Assembly (NCBI GenBank): GCA_947630945.1
Contig: CANRJN010000001.1
Location: 1-57,939, forward strand
Length of the DNA stretch: 57,939 nucleotides
Source of the DNA: an uncultured Bacilli bacterium
GTDB lineage: Bacteria > Bacillota_I > Bacilli_A > RF39 > UBA660
Direction of reading: 5' to 3'
In this document: one piece after another, positions 5,466-53,440 of the stretch
How positions within the stretch are numbered: position 1 is the first letter of the stretch
How the letters are laid out: the number at the start of each line of letters is the position of its first letter
The notes under the pieces: generated by a model
What the model was told of the DNA's origin: nothing
The model's input: the letters and a program-made list of their open reading frames with translations, nothing else
The model's database searches: none
Made by a program: the position numbers and the translations under genes

Positions 5466-6536
5466 CTAATCAGAAATATTGTTTTTATATTTTAATAAAA
5501 TTGTGTCAAAATCTTTTTTCACATATGAATTGAAATTTTTCTTAAATCTTTCATATTCACTCTTCCATGAATTATATATATATATATTACGACAATCATT
5601 TAAATCATAATTTTCTTTTAAATATTTTCCAAAATAAAGTGTAAATTTTGTTGCTCCATATACATTTAAATGAGCATAATCACATAATTCAGTTTTATAA
5701 TCTATTTTAAAATCTTCTAAATTATTAAAGTTAATAACTTGATAATTTTCTCTTTCAATAAGATTTTTAGCATAATTTAATTTTTTAATACCACCATTAT
5801 CATATGTTCTAGCAGGTATAATAAACAAAACATTTAAATCATTGTCTTTTATATATTTTAATAAATCTAATAAGGCTTTTTCATTAAAATTAGATAATTT
5901 AATAATATCATTATTCCATTCATAGTCATCATATTTTACTATTTTTTCACTAAAACTATATCCTTTATATAAATCATTTCTTTCACGTTTTGCAGTACCT
6001 TTAAATACATCTTTCCATTTATTATGATATAAAACAAAACTAAAATAATAATTTATATAATTTTTATTATTTTCACCATTATTTTCTAACAACTCATTTA
6101 TTAAATTTAACCTATTTAGTGAAAATTTCATTGAATCTACTCCATTTCTAATTCTTCCCTCATCAGGTAAATTATCATTTAATATTTGTCCTAAATCAAT
6201 TACGAAAATTTTTGGATTTTGATATTTTTTTGCTTCTTCTATAAAATATTTAACTGTCAAAAAAGATTGAGAATGGTATGCAAAAAGCCCTGTTGTAAAA
6301 CCATATTCATTATAGGCTAACGTTGGATTAAAATGAGAAATAACATTACTACTTCCAACATAGACTATATCTAATGAATTTTTTGGTTCTTCATAAAAAT
6401 AATTAATAGATGTTTTTTCTAACCATAAGACGTTAAAAACAATTTTAAACAATATTAAAAAAATTGCTACAAAACTAATTATTTTTACTACATTTTTCAT
6501 TACAAACTCCTTTAATCCATTATTTTTTATATTCAT
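5466..6536 (-). CDS. SGNH/DltD-AlgJ-like protein, paralog 2 of 5
   Basis: 356 aa. YVGSSNV and DYAHLN motifs plus an N-terminal TM helix. The real start is probably the internal MKNVVKII (ATG at 6500), which removes the overlap with the upstream paralog. Confidence 0.7.
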   Translation of the reverse strand: MNIKNNGLKEFVMKNVVKIISFVAIFLILFKIVFNVLWLEKTSINYFYEEPKNSLDIVYVGSSNVISHFNPTLAYNEYGFTTGLFAYHSQSFLTVKYFIEEAKKYQNPKIFVIDLGQILNDNLPDEGRIRNGVDSMKFSLNRLNLINELLENNGENNKNYINYYFSFVLYHNKWKDVFKGTAKRERNDLYKGYSFSEKIVKYDDYEWNNDIIKLSNFNEKALLDLLKYIKDNDLNVLFIIPARTYDNGGIKKLNYAKNLIERENYQVINFNNLEDFKIDYKTELCDYAHLNVYGATKFTLYFGKYLKENYDLNDCRNIYIYNSWKSEYERFKKNFNSYVKKDFDTILLKYKNNISD

Positions 6537-7545
6537 TTATTAAATAATCATAATTCTCTTTAAAAATTTTTTTATAATTTTCTTCCAAACGTATATGTTC
6601 TTTTTCCCATGAACTATATATATATATATTACGATGATCACTTAAATTATATTTTTCTTTTAAATATTTTCCAAAATATAAAGTATATTTTGTTGCACCA
6701 AAAATATTTAAATGTCCGCCATCATTAAAATCTTTTAAATAATCTATTTTATAATCTTCTAAATTATTAAAGTTAATAACTGAATAATTTTTATTTTCAA
6801 TTATTTTTGAGGCCTCATTTAATTGTCTTGCAACTGTATTATTAAAAATTCTTGCTGGAATGACAAATAATACATTTAAATCATTCTCTTTTATATATTC
6901 TAATAAATCTAATAATTCTTTATGATTGTATTCTGGTAATTCCCTAGTATCTTCTACCCATTTGTAACTTATTTGTGGTTCAATTTTATCATTAAAAGTA
7001 TATCCCTTATATAAATTTTCATTTTCATTTTTTAAATCGCCACTTAAAATATCTTTCCATCTATTATGATATAAATTAAAACTAAAATAATAATTTATAT
7101 AATCAGTATATGGAACACTATAGTGTGATAATTTTTTATTTATAAGTTTAATACGATTTAAAGAAAATTTCATTGAATCTGCTCCTGTTCTTATTTCACC
7201 TGAATCAATATTTTTATGCTCATTAATAATTTGTGCAATATCAATGATATAAAGTTTTGGATTTTGATATTTTCTTACTTCTTCTATAAAATATTTAATT
7301 GTATCAAATGATTGTGAATAAGTAGCATATATACTAGTAGTAAATCCATATTCTTTATATGCTAATGTTGGAATATAATGTGCTATTACATTACTAGATC
7401 CAATATAAGCAACGTCCATAGAATTTTTTGGTTCCTCATAAAAATAACTAATTGATGTTTTTCTTAACCAAAGAGTATTAAAAACTTCTATAAATAAAAT
7501 AACAAAAATAATTAAAAATAGCGTTGCTTTTATTACTTTTTTCAT
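6520..7545 (-). CDS. SGNH/DltD-AlgJ-like protein, paralog 3 of 5
   Basis: 341 aa. YIGSSNV and DGGHLN motifs, N-terminal TM helix, same conserved blocks as its neighbours. Confidence 0.7.
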   Translation of the reverse strand: MKKVIKATLFLIIFVILFIEVFNTLWLRKTSISYFYEEPKNSMDVAYIGSSNVIAHYIPTLAYKEYGFTTSIYATYSQSFDTIKYFIEEVRKYQNPKLYIIDIAQIINEHKNIDSGEIRTGADSMKFSLNRIKLINKKLSHYSVPYTDYINYYFSFNLYHNRWKDILSGDLKNENENLYKGYTFNDKIEPQISYKWVEDTRELPEYNHKELLDLLEYIKENDLNVLFVIPARIFNNTVARQLNEASKIIENKNYSVINFNNLEDYKIDYLKDFNDGGHLNIFGATKYTLYFGKYLKEKYNLSDHRNIYIYSSWEKEHIRLEENYKKIFKENYDYLINEYKK

Positions 7546-7570: not shown

Positions 7571-8611
7571 TTAATAATTATTTAAATAATAATCAAAATT
7601 TTGTTTAGTCATATTTTCAAAATCTTTTTTAAACCTTTCATATTCTTTATCCCATGAATTATATATATTCGAATTTTCATTTTTAATATTGTATTTTTCA
7701 CTTATATATTTTCCAAAATAAAGTGTAAATTTTGTTGCTCCATATACATTTAAATGTGATGAATCTTTAAAATCTGTACCATAATCTATATTCAAATCTT
7801 CAACTTCGTTAAAATTAATTACATCATAATTATAAGAATTTATAATTTTTGAGGTATTATTTAATTTTTGTTGATATTCTGTTGAATAAAGTCTAGGTGG
7901 TATTATAAATACTACATTTAAATCATTTTCTTTTATATAATTTAATAAATCATATAATATCTCTTTTTCTTCATTATTTATTTCAATTTCTTTTGTACTC
8001 CATTTTTCTTCATTTTGTGGTCTAATTCTTATAGAGCCTTCTTTTTCATCAAATATAAAACCCTTATAAATTGTATCATCTTCTCTTTTTATTGATCCAT
8101 CAAACAAATACTTCCATTTATTATGATATTTTAAAAAACTAAAATAATAATTAATGTAATTTCTATCTTTTTCATCATAATATTTTAATATATTATTAAT
8201 TAAGTTTATTCTGTTTAATGAAAATTTCATTGAATCAGTTATATTTCTAGTTCTTCCTTCATCATAAACTATGTCTTCATTATTAATTTGTACTAAATCG
8301 ATTACATAAAGTTTCGGATTCTGATATTTTTGTGCTTCTTTTATTAAATATTTTATTGCAATAAATGATTGAGAATGCCATGATAAAAGACTAGTAGTAA
8401 ATCCATATTTATTAAATGCAAGAGTTGGATTAAAATGCATAACAACATTACTTGAACCTAAATAAACAACATCTATTGAATTTTTGGGTTCTTCATAAAA
8501 ATAACTTATAGAATTTTTTCTTAACCATAATTTATCAAAAACAAAAGAAAATATTAAAATAAATATAATGCAAAATATAATACTTTTTATAATTTTTTTC
8601 ATATACTTCAC
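7571..8611 (-). CDS. SGNH/DltD-AlgJ-like protein, paralog 4 of 5
   Basis: 346 aa. YLGSSNV and DSSHLN motifs with an N-terminal TM helix. It is the only paralog lacking the IYIY/(TA)n tract (NIYNSW instead). Confidence 0.7.
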   Translation of the reverse strand: MKYMKKIIKSIIFCIIFILIFSFVFDKLWLRKNSISYFYEEPKNSIDVVYLGSSNVVMHFNPTLAFNKYGFTTSLLSWHSQSFIAIKYLIKEAQKYQNPKLYVIDLVQINNEDIVYDEGRTRNITDSMKFSLNRINLINNILKYYDEKDRNYINYYFSFLKYHNKWKYLFDGSIKREDDTIYKGFIFDEKEGSIRIRPQNEEKWSTKEIEINNEEKEILYDLLNYIKENDLNVVFIIPPRLYSTEYQQKLNNTSKIINSYNYDVINFNEVEDLNIDYGTDFKDSSHLNVYGATKFTLYFGKYISEKYNIKNENSNIYNSWDKEYERFKKDFENMTKQNFDYYLNNY

Positions 8612-31850: not shown

Positions 31851-32015
31851 GTGATTGAATTGATATTACTTTACAAAGAACTTATCAAACAATATAAAAG
31901 TGATTATGAAATTAAAAAGTTAATTAAAATTGGAAAGATATTTAAGATAGAAAAAGGAATTTATAGTGATCAAAAAAATGTAAATTATTTAAAAGTACTT
32001 ACTAAAAAATATCCT
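31851..32015 (+). pseudogene. Truncated abiEi-like (type IV TA antitoxin, N-terminal wHTH) gene fragment
   Basis: The first ~55 codons (…YEIKKLIKIGKIFKIEKGIYSD…LTKKYPN) resemble the AbiEi_4 N-terminal domain. The similarity stops at 32016, where fic-derived sequence begins. The rest of ORF 31851..32204 is read-through of unrelated DNA. Confidence 0.55.
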
Positions 32016-32104
32016 AACCTTTTTAATTATGTAATTGATATTCCTTTATTCCTCTTATATAAAAATCTTTATTTCTATCTTCTATATAAAATGGCTTTAT
32101 ATCA
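32016..32104 (-). pseudogene. 89-bp fic-derived fragment, a direct repeat of 34396-34484
   Basis: About 84/89 nt identical to the intact fic gene. The minus strand translates to DIKPFYIEDRNKDFYIRGIKEYQLHN*, versus Fic residues DIMPFYIEDRNKDFYIRGIKEYQLHNEKG. Confidence 0.85.
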
Positions 32105-32190: not shown

Positions 32191-32796
32191 TTATAATTTA
32201 CTAAAATCATCAATTGCATCTAAAATTTTATATATACTTGTATGTGGATTTGATTCTATTAATTCTTCACCACTACTAACAGCTCTTTTCTCTAATAGTT
32301 TTGCAGTTGTTCTAGCTTTATCAGTATTACATTTTATAAATTTATACATATCTATAGTTTCTGTATATGTACCATTTTCTTTTACAATTTCTTTTTTAAC
32401 TTTTTGACTACTATCAAATTTCAATTTATTATCTCTATAGTGTAACAAATACCATATTTCAAATGTTGGAGCCGATGTTATTATTTCTATATTATTTTTT
32501 AAACACTTCTCTTCTATTTCTTTTATCTCATTTATTCTTCTATCATCTAAATCTGTATCTAATACTAAAAATATTCTTACATTATCTTCTGATTTAATAT
32601 CTTCGTTTTGAATATATTTTAATAAATTATCTAACATACCTTTTGGATCTGTAGCATTTCCTGTTGAAAATTGTATTCTTAAATCTCTTGTGCAAAAATG
32701 TCTAAAATAATAATATTCTGATGATTTCATACCACCTTCAGAACATATTATAATTAGTGGCCTTCTTTGCTGAATTTTTATTTGTCTTCTAGCCAC
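32191..32796 (-). CDS. RloB-like Toprim-type protein (AbiLii-like), cassette 1
   Basis: 201 aa. LIIICSEGGMKSSEYYYF, LVLDTDLDD and ITSAPTFEIWYLLHY match the RloB pattern (EG..E..YF, DxD, SxPxFExWxLLH). Overlaps the ATPase gene by 19 nt. Confidence 0.75.
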   Translation of the reverse strand: MARRQIKIQQRRPLIIICSEGGMKSSEYYYFRHFCTRDLRIQFSTGNATDPKGMLDNLLKYIQNEDIKSEDNVRIFLVLDTDLDDRRINEIKEIEEKCLKNNIEIITSAPTFEIWYLLHYRDNKLKFDSSQKVKKEIVKENGTYTETIDMYKFIKCNTDKARTTAKLLEKRAVSSGEELIESNPHTSIYKILDAIDDFSKL

Positions 32797-34046
32797 AAAT
32801 CAATGTCTCTTATAAATGGTATTGCTCCATATCTACCATTTATATAACCTTTCTGAATATTTTCATCTTTTCTTACAGGAAATGAATCAAGTGGATACAA
32901 ATCAGAAACACCTGTTTTTGAATTTTTTTCAGTAAACCAAATTTGATCTCTTCTTAATAAATTAAGATTTAATAGATTTGTTGCATGTGTCATAAATATT
33001 AACTGACTATTAGCTTTATTAATATCTTTATTATTAAATAGTTTTATAAGGAACTCTACTAATACTGGATGCATGCTTTTTTCTAATTCATCAACAACAA
33101 TTATTTTAGTACTTTCAAATGATCTTTTTAAAAATGGTGCTAAAGCAAATAATACATGAGTACCTGAAGATTCATCATTAAAATCTAATTTATAATGATG
33201 TGAATTATTATTTTCATCAACGACTTCATGTTCTAATTCAATTTTTATATCATGCATTTTAAATGTACCAATTGCTTTTAAAAAAGATGGCAGATTCATA
33301 TTTACATCCATACTATCTACTTCTTTTTCTTCATAGTCAACATGCATATCTTTAATTAATATATCTGCTTCTTTCAATAATTTCAAAGTAAATTCTTTTA
33401 AACTACTATTTTCATTACAATATTCTTTTAAATCACGAGATGAAATATTATTAAAAGAATCACATGTTTCTATAGAATTACTAAGCCATAAATATGCATC
33501 TTTTGTTTTTTCATAATTCCAATTTGTTGCTGTTGATAAAAACAATTTATTTTCTGTATTTTTTAATTTCAATGAATCTAATTTATTTTTATCACTATTA
33601 AACTCATATATATTTGTTTTAGTTCTTGTAAAGATATTTGTTGGCTTTTGAGTATAATATGCATCTAATATTTCATCATAAATTTTATTTATATCTGCAC
33701 TAAAATAATATCTATACTTTATGCCATTAGTAATAAAGAAAAACTCAAATTCACTAGGTTTATTTTTTGTTGTTTCATCAAATAAAAATGGTTTCAAAAA
33801 ATTCCATTTTCCCCCTACTGGAATCAAATTAGAATTTCTTATCATAAGTATTGCACACGAAAAAGCCTTAAATAAGTTAGATTTACCAGATGCATTTGCT
33901 CCATATATAGCAGCTGTTTTTAATAAATCTAACCCATTTTTAGCAATTATATTATCTAAATTCTCATCTCCATTGCCTTTTTCCATTGATAAAGTTACTT
34001 TATTTTTAAAAGATAAAAAATTTTTAACACTAAATTCAATAAGCAT
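32778..34046 (-). CDS. ABC/AAA_21-type ATPase (AbiLi/RloA-like), cassette 1
   Basis: 422 aa. Walker A IYGANASGKSNLFK, Walker B IIVVDELEKSMHP, C-terminal RRDQIWFTEKN...GRYGAIPFI. A paralog of 52199..53440. Confidence 0.8.
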   Translation of the reverse strand: MLIEFSVKNFLSFKNKVTLSMEKGNGDENLDNIIAKNGLDLLKTAAIYGANASGKSNLFKAFSCAILMIRNSNLIPVGGKWNFLKPFLFDETTKNKPSEFEFFFITNGIKYRYYFSADINKIYDEILDAYYTQKPTNIFTRTKTNIYEFNSDKNKLDSLKLKNTENKLFLSTATNWNYEKTKDAYLWLSNSIETCDSFNNISSRDLKEYCNENSSLKEFTLKLLKEADILIKDMHVDYEEKEVDSMDVNMNLPSFLKAIGTFKMHDIKIELEHEVVDENNNSHHYKLDFNDESSGTHVLFALAPFLKRSFESTKIIVVDELEKSMHPVLVEFLIKLFNNKDINKANSQLIFMTHATNLLNLNLLRRDQIWFTEKNSKTGVSDLYPLDSFPVRKDENIQKGYINGRYGAIPFIRDIDLWLEDK

Positions 34047-34318: not shown

Positions 34319-35059
34319 TTATTTCTCATCTTCTAAAAAGTAATTAACTAATTTTTCATAATTATCTTGACTATTTAAACAAGTATCAATTAAATAACCT
34401 TTTTCATTATGTAATTGATATTCTTTTATTCCTCTTATATAAAAATCTTTATTTCTATCTTCAATATAGAATGGCATTATATCATTATTTAAACATTCTC
34501 TAAACATTATCATTCTTCCTACTCTACCATTTCCATCTTGAAAAGGATGAATTCGCTCAAATCTAACATGAAATTCTATAATATCTTCAAAACTCTTTTT
34601 AGATATTTTATTATACCAATTTAATAATTCTTTCATATCTTTTGAAACATTTTTTGGAAGAGATGTTGTAATATCCCCTACAAAATTTTTTTTCTTTTTA
34701 TATTCTCCTACATTAAACCATTCTTTTTCACTATCAGTAAGTGTTCCATCTTTTAATATAAAATGAAATTTTTTAATCATATCTTCTGATAATTTTTCAT
34801 CAATAGTATCTAACATATATTTAAATAAAGTAAAATGATTTTTAGTTTCTGTCGCGTCTTTTAAAACAATAACTTTATTACTACTTGTAAGAATAGTTCC
34901 TGTATCATATATACTAGATGTTTCATCTGGAGTTATAGTTGAACCTTCAATGTGATTTGAATTATATGCAAAATCTATCTGTGTTTTATGATAAAGATTT
35001 CCAGATAAATTCATATTTTTTTGTTCAATCAATGCTTTTTTTAATTTACTTATTTCCAT
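34319..35059 (-). CDS. fic: Fic-domain protein (AMPylase-type), class II with N-terminal inhibitory motif
   Basis: 246 aa. The HPFQDGNGRVGR Fic motif is intact. S34-N-H-I-E38-G39 fits the (S/T)xxxE(G/N) inhibitory helix motif. Confidence 0.9.
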   Translation of the reverse strand: MEISKLKKALIEQKNMNLSGNLYHKTQIDFAYNSNHIEGSTITPDETSSIYDTGTILTSSNKVIVLKDATETKNHFTLFKYMLDTIDEKLSEDMIKKFHFILKDGTLTDSEKEWFNVGEYKKKKNFVGDITTSLPKNVSKDMKELLNWYNKISKKSFEDIIEFHVRFERIHPFQDGNGRVGRMIMFRECLNNDIMPFYIEDRNKDFYIRGIKEYQLHNEKGYLIDTCLNSQDNYEKLVNYFLEDEK

Positions 35060-35095
35060 TTTTTTCTCCTATATTTTAACTTTTTCAATACAAAA

Positions 35096-35172
35096 TGGCG
35101 TCCTAGGGCAGAGTCGAACTGCCGACTTACGACTTAGGAGGTCGTTACTCTATCCAACTGAGTTACTAGGAC
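35096..35172 (-). tRNA. tRNA-Arg (anticodon CCT), CCA encoded
   Basis: The minus strand folds by hand into a cloverleaf: GTCCTAG-TA-ACTC-AGTTGGATA-GAGT-A-ACGAC-CTCCTAA-GTCGT-AAGTC-GGCAG-TTCGACT-CTGCC-CTAGGAC-GCCA. That is a 7-bp acceptor stem, 5-bp anticodon stem, loop CT-CCT-AA, T-loop TTCGACT, 77 nt in total. Confidence 0.9.
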
Positions 35173-36053: not shown

Positions 36054-37106
36054 TCACCAAAGCCTTAAAATGTCATTAAATGTTACATATATCATTAAAA
36101 TAATCATAGCACCAAAACCAACTAGATTTAATATTGCTTCTAATTTTTCTGGTGTTTTCTTACCCATAATCTTCTCTATAATTAATATAAATATTCTACC
36201 ACCATCAAATACAGGAATTGGTATTAAATTAACTATACCTACATTTATACTTAAATATGCTGTTAAATAAAGCAATACTTCTAATCCTTGATATTTAACT
36301 GTATCAACTAATGAATATATTCCAACAGGACCACTTAAACTATTTGCAGATACTTGACCTGTAAATAATGATCCTAATATTTTAAATATTGTTACTGTAT
36401 TATCCCAAGTTCCTACAAATGCATAACTTATCGCGTTTAAGAATCCTTTTTTGTATGTAGCACCACCATATTCAATTCCAAAACTTCTTACTTCTTCGTT
36501 ATCTTTTTCACTTACATCTGGTACTACATTATATTTTTTAACTTGTTTATTTGGTTTTTCTACTGTTATTTCATAATTATCTTTTAATTTTTTAGCAATT
36601 GCTTCTAATATAAAATCATCTAATGTAGAAATCTTTTTACCATTTATTTCAATTATTTTATCTCCACTTTCAAGACCAGCATTGTAAGCAGGACCACCCT
36701 CAACTACTGATTTTATAATTGGTTCTTCAACAGGTTTTCCATATAAAAGTCCACTAATAAAAAATAATACAATTGCTAAAATAAAGTTAAATACAATACC
36801 ATTAATTAATACCCAAAATGTTTTAAAAAATCCTTTGTTTTCTAGTATTCTATCTTTCTTTATTTTTTTATCTGGCATCTCTTTTTCTGCCATAGAAACA
36901 TATCCACCTATTGGTAATAATCTAAGTGAATAAGTAGTTTCACTTTTTTTAGGTTTATGTTTTAAAAGAAGTGGTCCCATACCAAGAGAAAACTCTTCTA
37001 CATATACTCCACTTTTTTTAGCAGCTATAAAGTGTCCAAATTCATGTATAGATATAATTAATCCTAAAATTATAAATAATATAAGTAATGTAATTATAAA
37101 GTTCAT
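36054..37106 (-). CDS. rseP: RIP site-2 metalloprotease RseP/RasP
   Basis: 350 aa. IHEFGHFIAAK (HExxH), central PDZ-like segment, NLIPIPVFDGGR motif. Confidence 0.9.
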   Translation of the reverse strand: MNFIITLLILFIILGLIISIHEFGHFIAAKKSGVYVEEFSLGMGPLLLKHKPKKSETTYSLRLLPIGGYVSMAEKEMPDKKIKKDRILENKGFFKTFWVLINGIVFNFILAIVLFFISGLLYGKPVEEPIIKSVVEGGPAYNAGLESGDKIIEINGKKISTLDDFILEAIAKKLKDNYEITVEKPNKQVKKYNVVPDVSEKDNEEVRSFGIEYGGATYKKGFLNAISYAFVGTWDNTVTIFKILGSLFTGQVSANSLSGPVGIYSLVDTVKYQGLEVLLYLTAYLSINVGIVNLIPIPVFDGGRIFILIIEKIMGKKTPEKLEAILNLVGFGAMIILMIYVTFNDILRLW

Positions 37107-37119
37107 TTATATTTGCCTC

Positions 37120-37914
37120 CTAGAAAAATGATACTAAATAAGAAAATGCAAGTATTGCAAATAACACACTATCAAGTCTATCTAATACTCCACCATGTCC
37201 TGGCATAATATTTCCATAATCTTTAACACCAAAATTTCTTTTAATTGCAGAAAATACTAAATCTCCAAATGCTGATATTAATGATAATGCAAGTGATATT
37301 ACAATTATTAAGAATAAATTTGCATAAGTATTAACAAATGTTACAAAGAATACACTTCCAAAGAATGTTCCAAAGAATAATCCTCCAATTAAACCTTCTA
37401 CTGTTTTATTTGGTGAAACTGATGGACATAATTTTATTTTTCCTATTCTAGTTCCAAAAAAATGTGCAAATGTATCAGACATTATTGTTATTATTACTAC
37501 ATATAATAAATATAATACATTCATATTTCTAATAATAATTAAGAAATTAAATGATGTTGCTAGTAACATAGTTATTGCAATTATAAATACTGCATCATTT
37601 ACACTATAATCTTTTCTCTTCATAACAAGTAATGGTAATAAACATACAAATAAATTTAATATATAAAGTCTATAATCAATATTAAAGTCACTACTATTAC
37701 TACATGATGATAAAACTATACAAAGATAAGATATAAATGTAAGAATTTTAACAAATGGATGTATTTTACTTTCTTTTTCATATACACTTATCATTTCATA
37801 GAATCCAATAATACTTAAAACCCCTACACCAAAATAATATGCATAACCACCTATTATAATTAATGGAATAACTATAATTAATGCTATGATTGCACTTATA
37901 ACTCTTTTTTTCAT
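37120..37914 (-). CDS. cdsA: Phosphatidate cytidylyltransferase
   Basis: 264 aa, polytopic. GDLVFSAIKRNFGVKDYGNIMPGHGGVLDRLDS is the CdsA signature. Confidence 0.9.
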   Translation of the reverse strand: MKKRVISAIIALIIVIPLIIIGGYAYYFGVGVLSIIGFYEMISVYEKESKIHPFVKILTFISYLCIVLSSCSNSSDFNIDYRLYILNLFVCLLPLLVMKRKDYSVNDAVFIIAITMLLATSFNFLIIIRNMNVLYLLYVVIITIMSDTFAHFFGTRIGKIKLCPSVSPNKTVEGLIGGLFFGTFFGSVFFVTFVNTYANLFLIIVISLALSLISAFGDLVFSAIKRNFGVKDYGNIMPGHGGVLDRLDSVLFAILAFSYLVSFF

Positions 37915-37974
37915 TAAATCACCTTTTTAATTATATCACTACATATGCTTTTTAACAAGAAATTATGATAAATG

Positions 37975-38000
37975 AAAAAGAGTATTGCCTACTCTTCGCA
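37975..38000. repeat. Direct repeat B (26 nt) bracketing the ATPase/Toprim cassette; also a terminator hairpin
   Basis: aaaaagagtattgcctactcttcgca versus 40066-40090 aaaaagagtatttctactcttcgca (1 mismatch plus 1 indel). Stem agagta/tactct. Confidence 0.8.
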
Positions 38001-38003
38001 TAA

Positions 38004-38807
38004 TTAATTTGTATTTCTAATAGTTATAATATTTAAATCCAATAATATAATTGATATTAATGATAACAAATTATAATAATTTTTATTATTATAAATATAT
38101 TCTTGTTTTTCAAAAATTTTCAAAGATGTAATTGAAAAATCATCTAAATTATATTCATTAATGCCTAAATTTATTAATGCTTTATTCATCATAGCAGTAG
38201 CTTTTAAAAGTTTATTCTTATCTATATCTTGTATTTTATAATTCTTATCTTTAATATAATTTTTTAAATTTTTTTCTTTTAAAAATAGAGTCTTATTATC
38301 AAAATTAGAAATAATATATGATTCTATGCATGGATAACTTAATAAAAGTAGTCCATTCATTTCTTCATTCTTATTTTCAAGTGAATTTCCAAATTTACTT
38401 AATAATTCTTTTGTAACTCCAACAGGGTTTGACTTATTATCTCTATCCCAAATGAAATACACATGAATATTTTTAATATCTATTCCATACTCAACATATA
38501 AGTATTTAAATAATTCATTAAGATAATCTTTATCTTTTTTTATAGATGATAAATTAGAATTTTTTGAGTTTATTACAATTATACTTGAATTTTCATTTCC
38601 TTTCATCACAAATTTATCATAACTTTTAAATATTTTTTGATTTCGACTTTTTTCAATATATTTATAATGTAAAATATTTACAAATATATGTTTTAATAAA
38701 TCAAACTCAAATTGCCCCTCTACAATTATTAAAACTGAACCAATATTTTTCTTTATATTAATCTTTAAAGATTTTATTGTATTTTGGCATTCCATCAAAT
38801 ACTCCAC
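38004..38807 (-). CDS. Toprim-like effector protein (DUF4435/DUF4276/RloB-like; AriB- or AbiLii-like), cassette 2
   Basis: 267 aa. VLIIVEGQFEFDLLKHIF, YFIWDRDNKSN and LLLSYPCIESYIISNF mirror the E / DxD / S-x-P-x-(F/I)-E pattern of the RloB proteins in this window. Overlaps the ATPase gene by 38-50 nt. Confidence 0.6.
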   Translation of the reverse strand: MEYLMECQNTIKSLKINIKKNIGSVLIIVEGQFEFDLLKHIFVNILHYKYIEKSRNQKIFKSYDKFVMKGNENSSIIVINSKNSNLSSIKKDKDYLNELFKYLYVEYGIDIKNIHVYFIWDRDNKSNPVGVTKELLSKFGNSLENKNEEMNGLLLLSYPCIESYIISNFDNKTLFLKEKNLKNYIKDKNYKIQDIDKNKLLKATAMMNKALINLGINEYNLDDFSITSLKIFEKQEYIYNNKNYYNLLSLISIILLDLNIITIRNTN

Positions 38808-39912
38808 TTAAATACATTTTTTCAGTATTTTGTGATTCTCTTGGCATTTCATCAGAAAATCTTTTTAATACTGAACCTTTTTTAGAATTAAAATAAACTG
38901 AATATATTTGATCCGGTCTTAATAAAGTATTATTTAATAAATTTGTTGAATGTGAAGCAAAAAACAATTGAGAATTTTTTGAATAATGAAAGAAATATTT
39001 AACTATACATTCTTCCAATTCATTATGAAATCCACTACTAAATTCATCTATAATTAACATACATTCATTTTTTATAGCATGTAAAAATGATGGTAATAAT
39101 TCCATTAATGTTATATTTCCAGTAGATTCAAATATTTCAGGAATATATATATTTGTACCTTGTTTATTAAAAGAAATAAATTTATTATTATCACTTGATT
39201 TTACATAAAATTCATCCTCTTTATTAGGAGTTTCTGTTCCATATTCAATTTTTTGCTTATAATTAATTTTATTTAAAAATTGATTTATTTCATCTACTGT
39301 ATTGTTATCTAAATATTCATGTATTAATAAATCATTTCCAGTATAAGTAACTATATCTCTAAAATAACAATTTATAAAAACTGATTTTTTCAAATATTCA
39401 AACCATTTAATTAAAGTTTTATTTTCATAAAAATTAGTATCAAAATATATTCTACGTAAAAACAATAATTTATTTGAAATTTCATTTACTATTTTTTCTT
39501 CATTTAAAGTAAATTTACCAGTATTTCCTAATCTTTCTAATATAATTTCATTATCAAATATTAATTTTTCTGAAATTATTTCTTTAAGACTTAACTCAAT
39601 TGAATATATAATCTCCTTATCTTCTTCAATAAAAGTATATTCAAGTTTGTAATTATCTTTTTTAGTATAAAAACAACTATTAACCATATAATCAATATCA
39701 CTATTTCCAAATAATAAATCTAACAACAATTTAATACTTTCTAATATTTTTGTTTTTCCAGAAGCATTCTCTCCAACAAATAAACAGCCTTTAAGTATTC
39801 TGCTATTTCCAACATTTTCATTTTCTAGAAATTTATAATTTGTAGCTGAAAAATCTATTTCCGTAGGTTGCATAAATGTAGTGTAATTATCTAATTTTAT
39901 TTTTTTTAACAT
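38758..39912 (-). CDS. ABC/AAA_21-type ATPase (AriA/AbiLi-like), cassette 2
   Basis: 384 aa. Walker A FVGENASGKTK, Walker B MLIIDEFSSGFHN, C-terminal LLRPDQIYSVYFN...YLSGVFDGMPK, parallel to the other two ATPases. Confidence 0.75.
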   Translation of the reverse strand: MLKKIKLDNYTTFMQPTEIDFSATNYKFLENENVGNSRILKGCLFVGENASGKTKILESIKLLLDLLFGNSDIDYMVNSCFYTKKDNYKLEYTFIEEDKEIIYSIELSLKEIISEKLIFDNEIILERLGNTGKFTLNEEKIVNEISNKLLFLRRIYFDTNFYENKTLIKWFEYLKKSVFINCYFRDIVTYTGNDLLIHEYLDNNTVDEINQFLNKINYKQKIEYGTETPNKEDEFYVKSSDNNKFISFNKQGTNIYIPEIFESTGNITLMELLPSFLHAIKNECMLIIDEFSSGFHNELEECIVKYFFHYSKNSQLFFASHSTNLLNNTLLRPDQIYSVYFNSKKGSVLKRFSDEMPRESQNTEKMYLSGVFDGMPKYNKIFKD

Positions 39913-40065
39913 ACTATAAATCCTTTCTTATTTTTATTATATGACAAATGTAAAAAAATTACAACTTCTTTTAAATAAATGTATTTTTTTTACATATTAT
40001 ACTATAAATTAATCATTTGTCAATATGATTTAAATATTTAATATAAATAATTAAATAAATTTATT

Positions 40066-40090
40066 AAAAAGAGTATTTCTACTCTTCGCA
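40066..40090. repeat. Direct repeat A (25 nt); overlaps the last codons, stop and terminator of the 236-aa gene
   Basis: aaaaagagtatttctactcttcgca. On the minus strand it reads tgc gaa gag tag (C-E-E-stop) followed by the hairpin and T5. Confidence 0.8.
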
Positions 40091-40789
40091 CAACTCTTCA
40101 ATATTATCTTCATAAGATAGTGTTGAATTTTTATAATTTTCACACCAATTTTTATCCATTTTTATTTGTTCAAATTCCAAACATTCATTTCCATCATATT
40201 TTGCTTTACTAATAGTTCCTTTATTTTTAGAAATACAATAATAATTAGTAGTATCACTTTCATCATACATCCAATCATAATTATCTTCTACTTCTTTAAA
40301 TTCTGGAAATACAACTATTTTATAATCATCTACTTCTAATTCTTTATTATCTTTAACAACTACTTTATATTTATTAATTTCATAGTCATACGCAACATGT
40401 ATAGCATTTTCTAATTGCGTATCACTATTTATATTTTCTACCATTTCACTTGTATAAATTCCTGTATTTGTAAGTAATTGTAAATCTTTCTTAGATATTT
40501 TTATTCCAGCATTATTTGTATAATAACCATCTTTATATTCATAATTTTTATTACATATTGCATCTTTATCACTATAACTACCTACTGTATAAGTTTTATT
40601 AACTTTACAATACCACATTCTATAAAACATACCATTATATACAATTAAATCACTATTTAATTCTTTTTTAAGTGCTATTTTAGGATTAGTATTCTTAGTT
40701 TTAGCAATATAATAATCTATATAACACCCAGCACCTAAAATCACAAATATACCAATTAAAATTAATATAATTTTTACTACTTTTTTCAT
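40079..40789 (-). CDS. Secreted/membrane-anchored Cys-containing protein, unknown function
   Basis: 236 aa. N-terminal hydrophobic signal/anchor (ILILIGIFVILGAGC, imperfect lipobox). No recognisable catalytic motif. Confidence 0.55.
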   Translation of the reverse strand: MKKVVKIILILIGIFVILGAGCYIDYYIAKTKNTNPKIALKKELNSDLIVYNGMFYRMWYCKVNKTYTVGSYSDKDAICNKNYEYKDGYYTNNAGIKISKKDLQLLTNTGIYTSEMVENINSDTQLENAIHVAYDYEINKYKVVVKDNKELEVDDYKIVVFPEFKEVEDNYDWMYDESDTTNYYCISKNKGTISKAKYDGNECLEFEQIKMDKNWCENYKNSTLSYEDNIEELCEE

Positions 40790-40883: not shown

Positions 40884-40952
40884 CATTTTACATTTTGAGA
40901 AAAAATCATTTTACATTTTGAGAAAAAATTGTTTTACACTTTGAGAAAATTT
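40884..40952. repeat. Three tandem 23-bp direct repeats in a divergent intergenic region
   Basis: cattttacattttgagaaaaaat occurs twice exactly (40884-40906, 40907-40929), followed by a degenerate third unit tgttttacactttgagaaaattt. Confidence 0.85.
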
Positions 40953-41029
40953 TTTATTACTTTTTTATATAAAAATAATATACTTTTAAAAATATTTTAA
41001 ATGTTTTATAATACATAAGAGGTGTTTTT

Positions 41030-51586: not shown

Positions 51587-52198
51587 TTACTTTTTCTTTA
51601 ATTCTTCTATTAATTTATAAATTTCAGTATAAGGACTTGATTCTAAACTTTGTAGTTTAGTATTATTTTTAATATGCTCTTTTTCTAATTTTTTTGCATT
51701 TTTTATGGCTTCTTCTGTTTTGGACTTAATGTCTTTATAAATATTGTAATTTTTCTTATAATGAGAATTATATCGTTTTAATCTATTTATTACTTCATTA
51801 TTACTCATTTTAGAAGTCGTATATTCATAATGTAATAAAAACCAAACTTCTACACAAGGATTAGAAACAATTGGAATTATATTATTTTCATTAGCAATTT
51901 TAATTGCCTCTTCAATTGATTTTTCTTTATTTTCATCTACATCTGTATCAAAAATACAATATGCTTTATCATAAGTTAAATCTAATCCTGAATCTTTTAC
52001 TTTTTTTATTGTTTGATTTACTAAATTAATTGGATCAGTTTCATTTCCAGGAACTATTTGTATATTATAATTATTATCTCTATCTATATAATTATTTAAG
52101 TAATTGTTTTCTGTTTTATTTTTCCCTTCAAAAGATACTAATATTACTCTTTTTGTTTTACGATTTTGTTTTCCTCTTAATCTATCATTCATAATCAC
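51587..52198 (-). CDS. RloB-like Toprim-type protein (AbiLii-like), cassette 3
   Basis: 203 aa. VILVSFEGKNKTENNYLNNY, CIFDTDVDEN and IVSNPCVEVWFLLHY give a textbook RloB pattern. Its start abuts the ATPase stop. Confidence 0.8.
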   Translation of the reverse strand: MIMNDRLRGKQNRKTKRVILVSFEGKNKTENNYLNNYIDRDNNYNIQIVPGNETDPINLVNQTIKKVKDSGLDLTYDKAYCIFDTDVDENKEKSIEEAIKIANENNIIPIVSNPCVEVWFLLHYEYTTSKMSNNEVINRLKRYNSHYKKNYNIYKDIKSKTEEAIKNAKKLEKEHIKNNTKLQSLESSPYTEIYKLIEELKKK

Positions 52199-53440
52199 TT
52201 ATTCCATAAATTTTTCATAATTAAATGTTAAGAAGGGAATTGCGCCGTATCTACCTAATAAATACCCTCTTTCTATATTTTCTGTATTTCTTACAGAAAA
52301 ATCATCCAAAGGATATATTTCACTAGATCCATCTTTATAATTTTTTTCAGTAAACCATATTTGATCTCTTCTTAATATATCAAGATTAAGTAAATTAGTA
52401 TCATTTGTATTAAATATTAATTGTGCACCTTTTTTATTTATATTTGAATTATTAAAGAAATTAACCAAATATTTCACAATAAATGGATGCAAGCTTCTAT
52501 CAAATTCATCTATTATTAAAACTTTTCCATTATCTAAAACATCTTTTATAACAGGAATAAAAGAAAATATAATTTGTGTACCTAATGATTCTTCTGATAT
52601 ATCAAATTCAAATTCTTTATTTTGAATTATATGTTTAGTATTAACTTTATAAAATTCTGCATTACTAGGAACAAAATTTTTAATTAAATTTGGAAGAGAT
52701 TTATAAGTATCTTCATTTAAATTTTCTTTTACTATACTATAACCTGTAACATTAAAATCTGCTTCTTTTAAAAATTTTAAAGCAAATTTTTCTAAATTTT
52801 TATTTTCATCATCAAAATATCTATTATATGAATAATTTTTTAATTGCTCAAAATTAAGAACTACTCCTAATTTATCAGTTAAAAAATTATATGCAGGTAT
52901 TACTTTATCATAATTCCAATTAGTAGCAGTAGAAAGAAAAAATTTATTATTTGTATTTTTATCTTTTATATCTTTTAGAAATTTTTTATCATTAGCAAAA
53001 GAATATTCATTTATATTACTACGTTTGAATATATTAACTGGTCTTCCATTTGGATAATTAATTAAATATTCTTCATAAATATTATTTTTATCTGCTTTAA
53101 ATCCATATAAATATCTTGTTTTATTTACAATAAATTTGATTTCAAATTCACTTGGTTTATTTGATGATTTTTTATCTAATTTAAATGGTATAATTGGTAG
53201 TACCATATCAGGGGTTAAAAAATTTGAATTTCTTATCATTTGACTTACAAGAGCAAGTATTTTAAATAAATTACTTTTTCCTGATGCATTTGCACCATAT
53301 ATTGCTGTCATTTTTAATATTTTATCATTTTTAATATTTATATAATTATCTTTCAATAAATTATCACTAGATGCTAACATTGAAAATGTATTCTTATTTT
53401 TAAAAGAAAAAAAATTAGCCACACTAAATTCAATTAACAT
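52199..53440 (-). CDS. ABC/AAA_21-type ATPase (AbiLi/RloA-like), cassette 3
   Basis: 413 aa. MLIEFSVANFFSFKNK, IYGANASGKSNLFK, LIIDEFDRSLHP, RRDQIWFTEKN...GRYGAIPFL. Clearly a paralog of 32778..34046. Confidence 0.8.
   Translation of the reverse strand: MLIEFSVANFFSFKNKNTFSMLASSDNLLKDNYINIKNDKILKMTAIYGANASGKSNLFKILALVSQMIRNSNFLTPDMVLPIIPFKLDKKSSNKPSEFEIKFIVNKTRYLYGFKADKNNIYEEYLINYPNGRPVNIFKRSNINEYSFANDKKFLKDIKDKNTNNKFFLSTATNWNYDKVIPAYNFLTDKLGVVLNFEQLKNYSYNRYFDDENKNLEKFALKFLKEADFNVTGYSIVKENLNEDTYKSLPNLIKNFVPSNAEFYKVNTKHIIQNKEFEFDISEESLGTQIIFSFIPVIKDVLDNGKVLIIDEFDRSLHPFIVKYLVNFFNNSNINKKGAQLIFNTNDTNLLNLDILRRDQIWFTEKNYKDGSSEIYPLDDFSVRNTENIERGYLLGRYGAIPFLTFNYEKFME

Follow-up and report, generated by a model that had tools for sequence, protein, structure and literature searches.

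The subject of this report is a two-gene cassette located directly upstream of cdsA in a contig of an uncultured Bacilli bacterium (GTDB lineage RF39, UBA660; GenBank assembly GCA_947630945.1, contig CANRJN010000001.1). The cassette encodes an ABC-type ATPase and a smaller Toprim-like partner, and it is bracketed by direct repeats carrying the 3' end and the terminator of the upstream gene. The whole stretch analyzed, referred to below as the window, is 57,939 nt long, and all genes of the cdsA/cassette region reside on its minus strand. The features of the region are as follows:

40079..40789, minus strand: open reading frame (ORF) of a conserved Cys-rich protein of 236 amino acids (aa) with a hydrophobic N-terminal segment; the duplicated target consists of its last codons and its terminator
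40066..40090, minus strand: repeat copy A, comprising the codons C-E-E-stop and a terminator hairpin (8-bp stem, GAAA loop, T run)
39996..40023, minus strand: sigma-70-like consensus promoter TTGACA-16-TATAAT, 12/12 (promoter scan)
38016..39994, minus strand: cassette core common to the copies at other genomic sites, both genes included (blastn)
39936-39964, minus strand: the cassette's own promoter-like site TTGTAA-17-TATAAT (promoter scan)
38758..39912, minus strand: gene of the 384-aa ABC-type ATPase (AAA_21), AbiLi/PDC-M12A-like (Pfam, PADLOC)
38004..38795, minus strand: gene of the 263-aa Toprim-like partner, 267 aa if read from the GTG at 38807 (motifs, PADLOC)
38758..38795, minus strand: 38-nt overlap of both ORFs, kept across the family; a GGAG precedes the ATG of the downstream gene by 7 nt
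37975..38000, minus strand: repeat copy B, comprising orphan C-E-E-stop codons and a hairpin (GGCAA loop, T run)
37930..37958, minus strand: cdsA promoter TTGTTA-17-TATAAT with TG (promoter scan)
37120-37914, minus strand: cdsA (Pfam CTP_transf_1, 1.7e-55), conserved housekeeping flank
36054-37106, minus strand: rseP (Pfam Peptidase_M50, 1.1e-61), conserved housekeeping flank

The two repeat copies, AAAAAGAGTATTTCTACTCTTCGCA (copy A, 40066-40090, 25 nt) and AAAAAGAGTATTGCCTACTCTTCGCA (copy B, 37975-38000, 26 nt), are identical outside the hairpin loop, where a substitution and an additional base set them apart (GAAA vs. GGCAA). On the coding strand, copy A reads TGC GAA GAG TAG, i.e., C-E-E-stop of the 236-aa gene, whose stop codon falls within the 8-bp stem followed by the T run. 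In copy B, the coding bases TGCGAAGAGTAG of this gene recur outside any ORF; this copy begins 4 nt past the stop codon of the 267-aa ORF and precedes the cdsA promoter. Both copies are predicted to fold into terminator-like hairpins (-8.6 kcal/mol for copy A and -8.0 kcal/mol for copy B). The initial annotation, made from the sequence of the window, described 25/26-bp repeats flanking exactly two genes, with copy A containing the end of the upstream gene together with its terminator and copy B carrying the same codons with no gene attached; sequence and folding agree with this description, only two copies being present in the window. As the annotation also stated, no recombinase is encoded between the two repeats. 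Within the window's species, copy A of one locus (L007, 984-1004) is polymorphic, a T of the stem/T run being replaced by C (tactctCttt), with no change in copy B.

In all, 86 related loci were fetched for the comparison (designated below by L-numbers). Exact-protein look-ups with the 236-aa protein and CdsA returned matches from nine samples, all on contigs of the window's species. The 29 homologs of the 236-aa protein, together with a metagenome scan with their alignment, yielded ~55 further loci, in each of which the gene end of the 236-aa homolog and the cdsA start were located. The 236-aa protein has no Pfam match, and the sole match in a GTDB genome scan with it was a spurious signal-peptide hit in a Prolixibacteraceae metagenome-assembled genome. 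The gene adjoins cdsA in ~45 related loci.

Among these, the site proved to be empty in 34 loci, represented by 24 loci with a spacer of 59–77 nt and 10 loci with abutting genes. The 24 spacer loci typically display one gene-end terminator hairpin (in a few lineages, a divergent one). The T run of the empty-site hairpin merges into the -35 element of the cdsA promoter, e.g., ...TGTAAAGAGTAGAAATACTCTTTTTTCTTGTTTAAAA...TATAAT; in the window, the counterpart of this junction is copy B together with the sequence downstream of it. Since related loci show either the hairpin once or abutting genes before the cdsA promoter, the cassette is a true insertion accompanied by duplication of the terminator/promoter junction. 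The discrete insert of ~2.07 kb attributed earlier to a target duplication is thereby confirmed, the cargo-free relatives carrying a single copy at the junction. The single-copy junction, being the common state across the clade, is taken here as probably ancestral.

Terminator hairpins are short and can recur, and both copies fold as terminators; hence, one could regard the repeats as unrelated copies of a common terminator, brought about by chance or convergence with no insertion involved. Practically no credence can be given to this explanation. The 57.9-kb window contains exactly two instances of AAGAGTA-N3-7-TACTCTT vs. 0 expected from 100 shuffles, and across the 86 fetched loci the pattern is confined to this junction, so that the motif is not a common one at unrelated loci, a circumstance which the annotation itself had named as fatal to its claim. 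Further arguments against a chance recurrence are the coding bases of the 236-aa gene repeated in copy B outside any ORF, the single-copy junctions of the relatives, and the same pattern recurring in L011 and L017, each with the sequence variants of its own lineage.

The same position is occupied by diverse cargo in different lineages. The occupied slot was found in eight distinct occupant states, all of them ≤2.2 kb:

Window: spacer 2164 nt, ATPase/Toprim-like pair
L011/L012: spacer 1555 nt, AAA_14/DUF4143 gene (PADLOC PDC-S01, 7e-59)
L015: spacer 1516 nt, 472-aa camelysin-like secreted protein
L017/L035: spacer 1054 nt, DnaJ-domain protein
L043/L044: spacer 729 nt, degraded small gene
L062: spacer 447 nt, small gene remnant
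L055/L060: spacer 300 nt, further-deleted version of the L062 remnant
L030: spacer 263 nt, non-coding

Recombinase domains were absent from all eight occupant states, and no elements larger than 2.2 kb were present in the slot of the ~45 loci. The slot is reused in sister lineages for different candidate defense genes (PDC-M12-like and PDC-S01-like). The remnants in L062 and L055/L060 represent one small cargo gene at two stages of decay (447 nt, and 300 nt with the 5' part deleted), indicating a gain followed by in situ erosion within the slot. In L011 (5020-5110), the promoter of the PDC-S01-like cargo gene is preceded by four copies of RACCGAATA at intervals of ~20–25 nt, which may constitute an operator array.

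Duplication of the hairpin is recognizable in three of the eight occupied states, i.e., in the window, L011, and L017. In the window, it encompasses 26 nt clearly and possibly ~48 nt; in L011, 33 nt are repeated with 94% identity (AAAAGTT[G/A]TGTGAAGAGTAG[G]TGATACTCTTTT) around the AAA_14/DUF4143 gene; in L017, a repeat of 28 nt with 100% identity (TGAAGAGTAGAAATACTCTTTTTTCTTG), extending into the -35 element, surrounds the DnaJ-domain gene. The length and the boundaries of the repeat vary by event (28–32 nt into the -35 element in L017 vs. 26–~48 nt in the window and L011). In the neighbor-joining tree based on CdsA and the 236-aa protein (supports given out of 100), the window and L011 are sisters (100/100) joined by L015, which lacks the duplication (89/100), and L017 clusters with lineages whose site is empty (63/100); the lineages bearing the duplication were monophyletic in 0/100. 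At least two independent duplications would be the most parsimonious account of this distribution; an older duplication followed by repeated precise loss via recombination between the copies is a conceivable, less economical one. In the window and L011 alike, the A copies feature TTG and a 4-nt loop and the B copies TTA and a 5-nt loop; these shared A/B differences suggest one duplication common to both lineages, with a later turnover of the cargo. As to a shared promoter following copy A, the alignment of this AT-rich sequence gave an ambiguous picture. Be it one duplication or separate ones, unrelated cargo lies between the duplicated hairpins in other lineages, and for this reason the duplicated junction belongs to the slot and not to a particular cargo.

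Turning to the cargo of the window, the ATPase matches Pfam AAA_21 (1e-13), the PADLOC model of AbiLi (1.2e-45, profile positions 49-290 of 326), and PADLOC PDC-M12A over the full length (2.3e-30, residues 1-373 on profile positions 1-368 of 369). The partner's family comprises 135 close relatives among 90%-identity clusters and, as judged by a profile search, at least 509 clusters when grouped at 50% identity; the 90%-identity matches listed bear neither a Pfam domain nor an informative name. Two sets of these proteins were aligned, A1 with 30 relatives and A4 with 34 diverse members (28–47% identity, all ranking in the top 150 of the matches to the family profile, with E ≤ 6e-34). Invariant in A1 are V29-E30-G31, E34, D121-R122-D123, and N151-G152..L154-L155..S157-Y158-P159; in A4, E, D.D, and G are still invariant. 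The arrangement E...DxD is the Toprim-type pattern. AbiLii was matched by 19 of the 34 diverse relatives, PDC-M12B by 17 (best 3.7e-12; the PDC-M12B models match 17, 7, and 3 of them), and Pfam RloB by 7, the best RloB match of 1.6e-4 being under the gathering score. The partner of the window itself gave no PDC-M12B match at E ≤ 1. When it was aligned by hhalign with an RloB protein of the window, DRD fell on DTD and SYPCIESY on SAPTFEIW (E = 0.0029 with a low probability of 11%; E = 0.036 in BLASTP). Sequence searches of the PDB with the ATPase and with the partner profile returned nothing meaningful and, for the ATPase, no match to AriA. The AlphaFold2 model of the partner reached a pLDDT of 84 and a pTM of 0.87.

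Taken together, the pair appears to be a divergent AbiL-like ABC ATPase combined with an RloB/OLD-type Toprim protein and to belong to the PADLOC candidate family PDC-M12. The description of the pair as divergent from the two canonical AbiL/RloB pairs of the window was correct, and it makes a split ABC-ATPase/Toprim-type defense candidate; the label "unclassified" given to it in the annotation had to be abandoned, as the ATPase matches PDC-M12A over its full length and the partner's relatives match the PDC-M12B and AbiLii models. Likeness to PDC-M12 (A+B) comprises the two-gene operon in addition to these matches, the difference being the window's own partner, which stays below the PDC-M12B threshold. 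With AbiL of Lactococcus lactis (AbiLi + AbiLii/RloB), the cassette shares the gene order, in which a split ABC ATPase of the AAA_21 type precedes a small Toprim-like protein, whose motifs E...DxD and S-x-P-x-x-E align with RloB; it differs in that the partner exceeds the canonical RloB proteins of the window by ~60 aa and has a conserved helical C-terminal half, and that the ATPase is 35% identical to the canonical AbiLi of the window in the C-terminal third only. In the literature, AbiL, PARIS, OLD, Gabija, and MADS3-4 have been grouped as systems combining an AAA15/21 ABC-ATPase with Toprim (PMC11464382), an AAA protein has been described as a neutralizer of the OLD_Toprim toxin (PMC10440598), and the PDCs have been presented as 145 untested "guilt-by-embedding" candidates (10.1101/2024.01.29.577857). 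The cassette shares with PARIS and the OLD family (classes 1–4) the logic of an ABC ATPase with a Toprim nuclease and a likely division into sensor and effector; OLD and Gabija (classes 1–2) fuse the ATPase and Toprim, whereas the cassette has two ORFs. By analogy, the ATPase could act as a sensor or regulator and the partner as a nuclease effector.

The split ABC ATPase/Toprim-like architecture and a generic AAA_21-derived AriA model (1e-13) could also be read as signs that the pair is PARIS itself (AriA/AriB), triggered by anti-restriction proteins such as Ocr. We consider this highly improbable. The specific AriA model scored 3e-4 vs. 1e-45 for AbiLi, and DUF4435 (PF14491) was not listed for the partner at E ≤ 10, nor was it among the families reported for its 30 and 34 aligned relatives, in which RloB, AbiLii, and PDC-M12B recur instead. 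The top 50 PDB matches of the partner model in Foldseek contained no AriB chain, and both proteins are far smaller than AriA (55 kDa) and AriB (35 kDa) (PMC11464382). The likeness to PARIS put forward in the annotation thus shrinks to the split architecture, without DUF4435, without AriB, and in a much smaller pair with no structural match recovered.

The unusually long gene overlap noticed earlier is genuine: it amounts to 38 nt if counted from the conserved ATG at 38795 (263 aa), which is the start position of most of the aligned partner homologs, and to 50 nt from the upstream GTG, the ORFs being in different frames. The 38-nt overlap is kept in the homologous cassettes of L019, L022, L080, and L084, i.e., in all four relatives whose contexts were inspected, where the same pair of genes resides at four other sites. 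In L019, it lies between an AP (apurinic/apyrimidinic) endonuclease gene and a penicillin-binding protein gene; in L022-L029, upstream of an operon for a short-chain dehydrogenase/reductase and Met-gamma-lyase; in L080 and L084, in defense-island-like arrays beside HTH_3/SocA_Panacea (Panacea toxin–antitoxin) and AAA_14/DUF4143 (PDC-S01) genes. In blastn, the window core is 82% identical to L019:1012-2989 and 72% to L022:230-2191. Within this homology (window 38016-39994) lie the promoter-like site of the cassette itself and the two genes, but neither hairpin is reached; the consensus promoter at 39996-40023, sitting between copy A and the core, is outside it. No significant direct repeat flanks the cassette at the four sites: the best match in L019 is a 13-mer overlapping the last codons of the upstream gene and reached in 11 of 200 shuffles, that in L080 was reached in 8 of 200, and L084 and L022 yielded nothing. 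Nor was a terminator hairpin seen downstream of the cassette in L019 and L022, as far as the flank was read. Searches of viral contigs, phage records, and plasmid records yielded no relatives of the partner.

These copies bear on the model advanced in the annotation, in which the ATPase/Toprim cassette is itself mobile and targets terminator hairpins, duplicating them. The repeats do bracket exactly two genes, and empty sites do carry one copy, as such a model would predict. It is nevertheless very unlikely to hold, given that the cassettes in L019, L022-29, L080, and L084 lack hairpin duplication, that the homology between the cassette copies ends before both hairpins, that unrelated cargo occupies the interval between the same duplicated hairpins, and that terminal inverted repeats and a recombinase are missing. 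Because the homology ends before the hairpins and the other sites have no significant repeat, the hairpin is derived from the locus and is neither carried nor targeted by the cassette. A scan for inverted repeats revealed weak AT-rich pairs only, none at the insert ends, and no transposase; the cassette thus differs from a transposon or insertion sequence (IS) by the lack of a transposase, terminal inverted repeats, and a fixed-length duplication. An integrase gene, as an integron cassette with its IntI/attI platform would call for, was not found near it either. The 18-nt hairpin is far shorter than the integron attC.

The probable reading, in our view, is that a defense-candidate cassette sits in a recurrently used slot, whose junction was duplicated by insertion and whose cargo is exchanged by host recombination or repair. 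The slot is the compact junction in which the terminator of the 236-aa gene runs into the -35 element of the cdsA-rseP promoter. Cargo could be delivered or exchanged by host recombination or repair via the conserved flanks or the hairpin copies, without a self-encoded enzyme, and selection would retain the insertions which regenerate both the terminator and the promoter. As the T run of the terminator overlaps the -35 element of cdsA, insertions duplicating the junction are the most likely to be tolerated: copy A would still terminate the upstream gene, and copy B appears to be placed so as to terminate the cassette and preserve the promoter context of cdsA. Following the analogy with AbiL, PARIS, and OLD, the ABC ATPase would hold or regulate the separately encoded RloB/OLD-type Toprim nuclease, the release or activation of which upon infection might lead to abortive infection.

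So understood, the locus resembles a hotspot of the minimal-mobile-element type holding a member of a known candidate defense family. Like the minimal mobile elements of Neisseria and like core defense hotspots, it represents a fixed site between conserved genes, receiving varied small whole-gene cassettes; as with the minimal mobile elements, mobility genes are lacking, most lineages are empty, and some of the cargo is defense-related. It is distinguished from them by the duplication of a terminator/promoter junction of 26–48 nt, with at least two independent events. The window also provides a natural example of a tiny defense cassette directly upstream of an essential operon with neither neighbor broken, owing to the duplication of the overlapping terminator/promoter junction. 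A large partner family (at least 509 clusters) is added to the AbiL/PDC-M12 group; its clear catalytic-type motifs make it a defined target for experimental validation.

Several observations weigh against the reading of a defense cassette in an exchange slot. On the side of the proteins, the partner itself matches PADLOC AbiLii weakly (5.6e-5, covering 49 of 170 profile positions) and neither Pfam (E ≤ 10) nor NCBIfam; a Foldseek search of its model against the PDB produced no convincing Toprim match (best TM 0.32); no phage-defense phenotype is known for PDC-M12, and no experimental validation of it was found in the library searched. On the side of the slot, five occupant states have no duplication, these occupants supplying a terminator of their own or being decayed themselves; hence, the duplication is not obligatory. 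Two positions of the repeat co-vary within each genome (TGC/TGC vs. TGT/TGT; loop AAT vs. GAT), and all pairwise identities of the four copies of the window and L011 fall within 82–93%, values which do not discriminate between a shared ancestral duplication and separate ones, so that gene conversion may have been at work or the window and L011 may each have acquired its duplication separately. In nine samples of the window's species, the cassette is present wherever the contig extends that far, with no presence/absence polymorphism and no current mobility seen. Homologous exchange through the flanks, too, is an assumption of this reading.

Direct repeats including the 3' end of a target gene are the classic attL/attR signature, an example being the repeats of the integrase-driven island ICESt1 and its cis-mobilizable element (CIME) at the 3' end of fda in Streptococcus thermophilus. 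A rather unlikely explanation follows this precedent: a tyrosine recombinase acting in trans would use the hairpin with the gene's 3' end as attB, and the occupants would be CIME-like or pdif-module-like, integrated from site-bearing circles. Direct repeats of ~27 nt with the 3' end of the target gene, here that of the 236-aa gene, do surround a recombinase-less element, one and the same site has repeatedly served different cargo, the core forms a hairpin whose arms measure 7–8 bp, and gene-3'/terminator repeats flank other accessory modules (window 32015-32104 with 34395-34484; 63 nt in L080; three copies in L084). What speaks against it is the lack of an integrase in the eight occupant states and in ten neighboring ORFs of the window (whole genomes were not searched), as well as the lack of any integrase-bearing element, or of anything >2.2 kb, at the slot in the ~45 loci. 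Moreover, the duplicated length and boundaries differ between events, the cassette elsewhere ends without any hairpin, and five occupants have no repeat.

Another, distinctly unlikely reading is that a host or helper activity in this AT-rich gut/rumen lineage inserts promoter-bearing accessory or defense cassettes at terminator hairpins via widely staggered cuts, thereby duplicating the 26–48-nt junction. Cas1-Cas2 duplicates the CRISPR repeat, and casposases make long target duplications, which offers an analogy. Were this true, the staggered-cut activity would create reusable "expression slots" with cargo swappable between the hairpin copies, and the repeats at window 32015/34395 and in L080 and L084 would be footprints of the same process. 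A literature search on terminator duplication flanking cassettes found nothing relevant. Under the probable reading, i.e., exchange by host recombination or repair, as well as under its rivals, the recurrent junction duplication without a recombinase constitutes a small but real mechanistic puzzle. The earlier proposal of a new mode of mobility with terminator hairpins as targets found no support in the four other sites, which lack a significant repeat, or in the other cargo lying between the hairpins.

In the vicinity of the slot, the divergent intergenic region between the 236-aa and 202-aa genes (window 40884-40955) harbors a ~23-nt unit (cattttacattttgagaaaaaat) in ~3 tandem copies. In one sample of the window's species (L002, 413-1621), the 236-aa gene is directly preceded, on the other strand, by the gene of a 402-aa HTH_38 protein; HTH_38 suggests an IS30-type transposase, in which case IS elements may be active near the slot.

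Two canonical AbiL/RloB pairs are also encoded in the window. One of them (32191-34046) is surrounded by a 90-nt direct repeat with 94% identity (32015-32104/34395-34484). The copy at 34395-34484 is inside a Fic gene (34319-35059), ~76–165 nt before its stop codon, and that at 32015-32104, an orphan piece of Fic, closely follows the RloB gene. In this pair, too, a cassette is bracketed by a duplicated part of a gene next to it. A tRNA-Arg(CCT) gene is located at 35096-35172 on the minus strand, and synteny with the loci of five of the six relatives compared ends at most a few bases from the gene's 3' end (35087-35096), which places the Fic gene and this AbiL pair in a variable island directly downstream of the tRNA gene. 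The third ATPase/Toprim pair of the window (51587-53440, minus strand) is a canonical AbiL (AbiLi 2e-93, AbiLii 1.6e-25) residing in a ~10.5-kb segment (~43.9–54.4 kb, with a 1960-aa ORF and a DUF6904 gene) which is absent from the syntenic loci L017, L031, and L033.

Repeats around small modules were also encountered in the two arrays harboring cassette homologs. In L080, which also contains the Panacea toxin–antitoxin pair, a 63-nt direct repeat with 98% identity (6352-6414/8074-8136) encloses a 105-aa gene and an ATPase gene; it represents the 3' end of the AAA_14/DUF4143 (PDC-S01-type) gene, duplicated upstream as the end of a 64-aa ORF. In L084, three copies of one terminator hairpin (GTTGATAACTTAATTGTTATCAAC with a T run after it) are found in the same direction (5516-5550, 6867-6896, and 7930-7964) beside the cassette homolog, each copy closing a different small gene group (NUDIX with a 172-aa protein; HTH with glyoxalase); the whole gives the impression of a row of modules with one and the same terminator between them.

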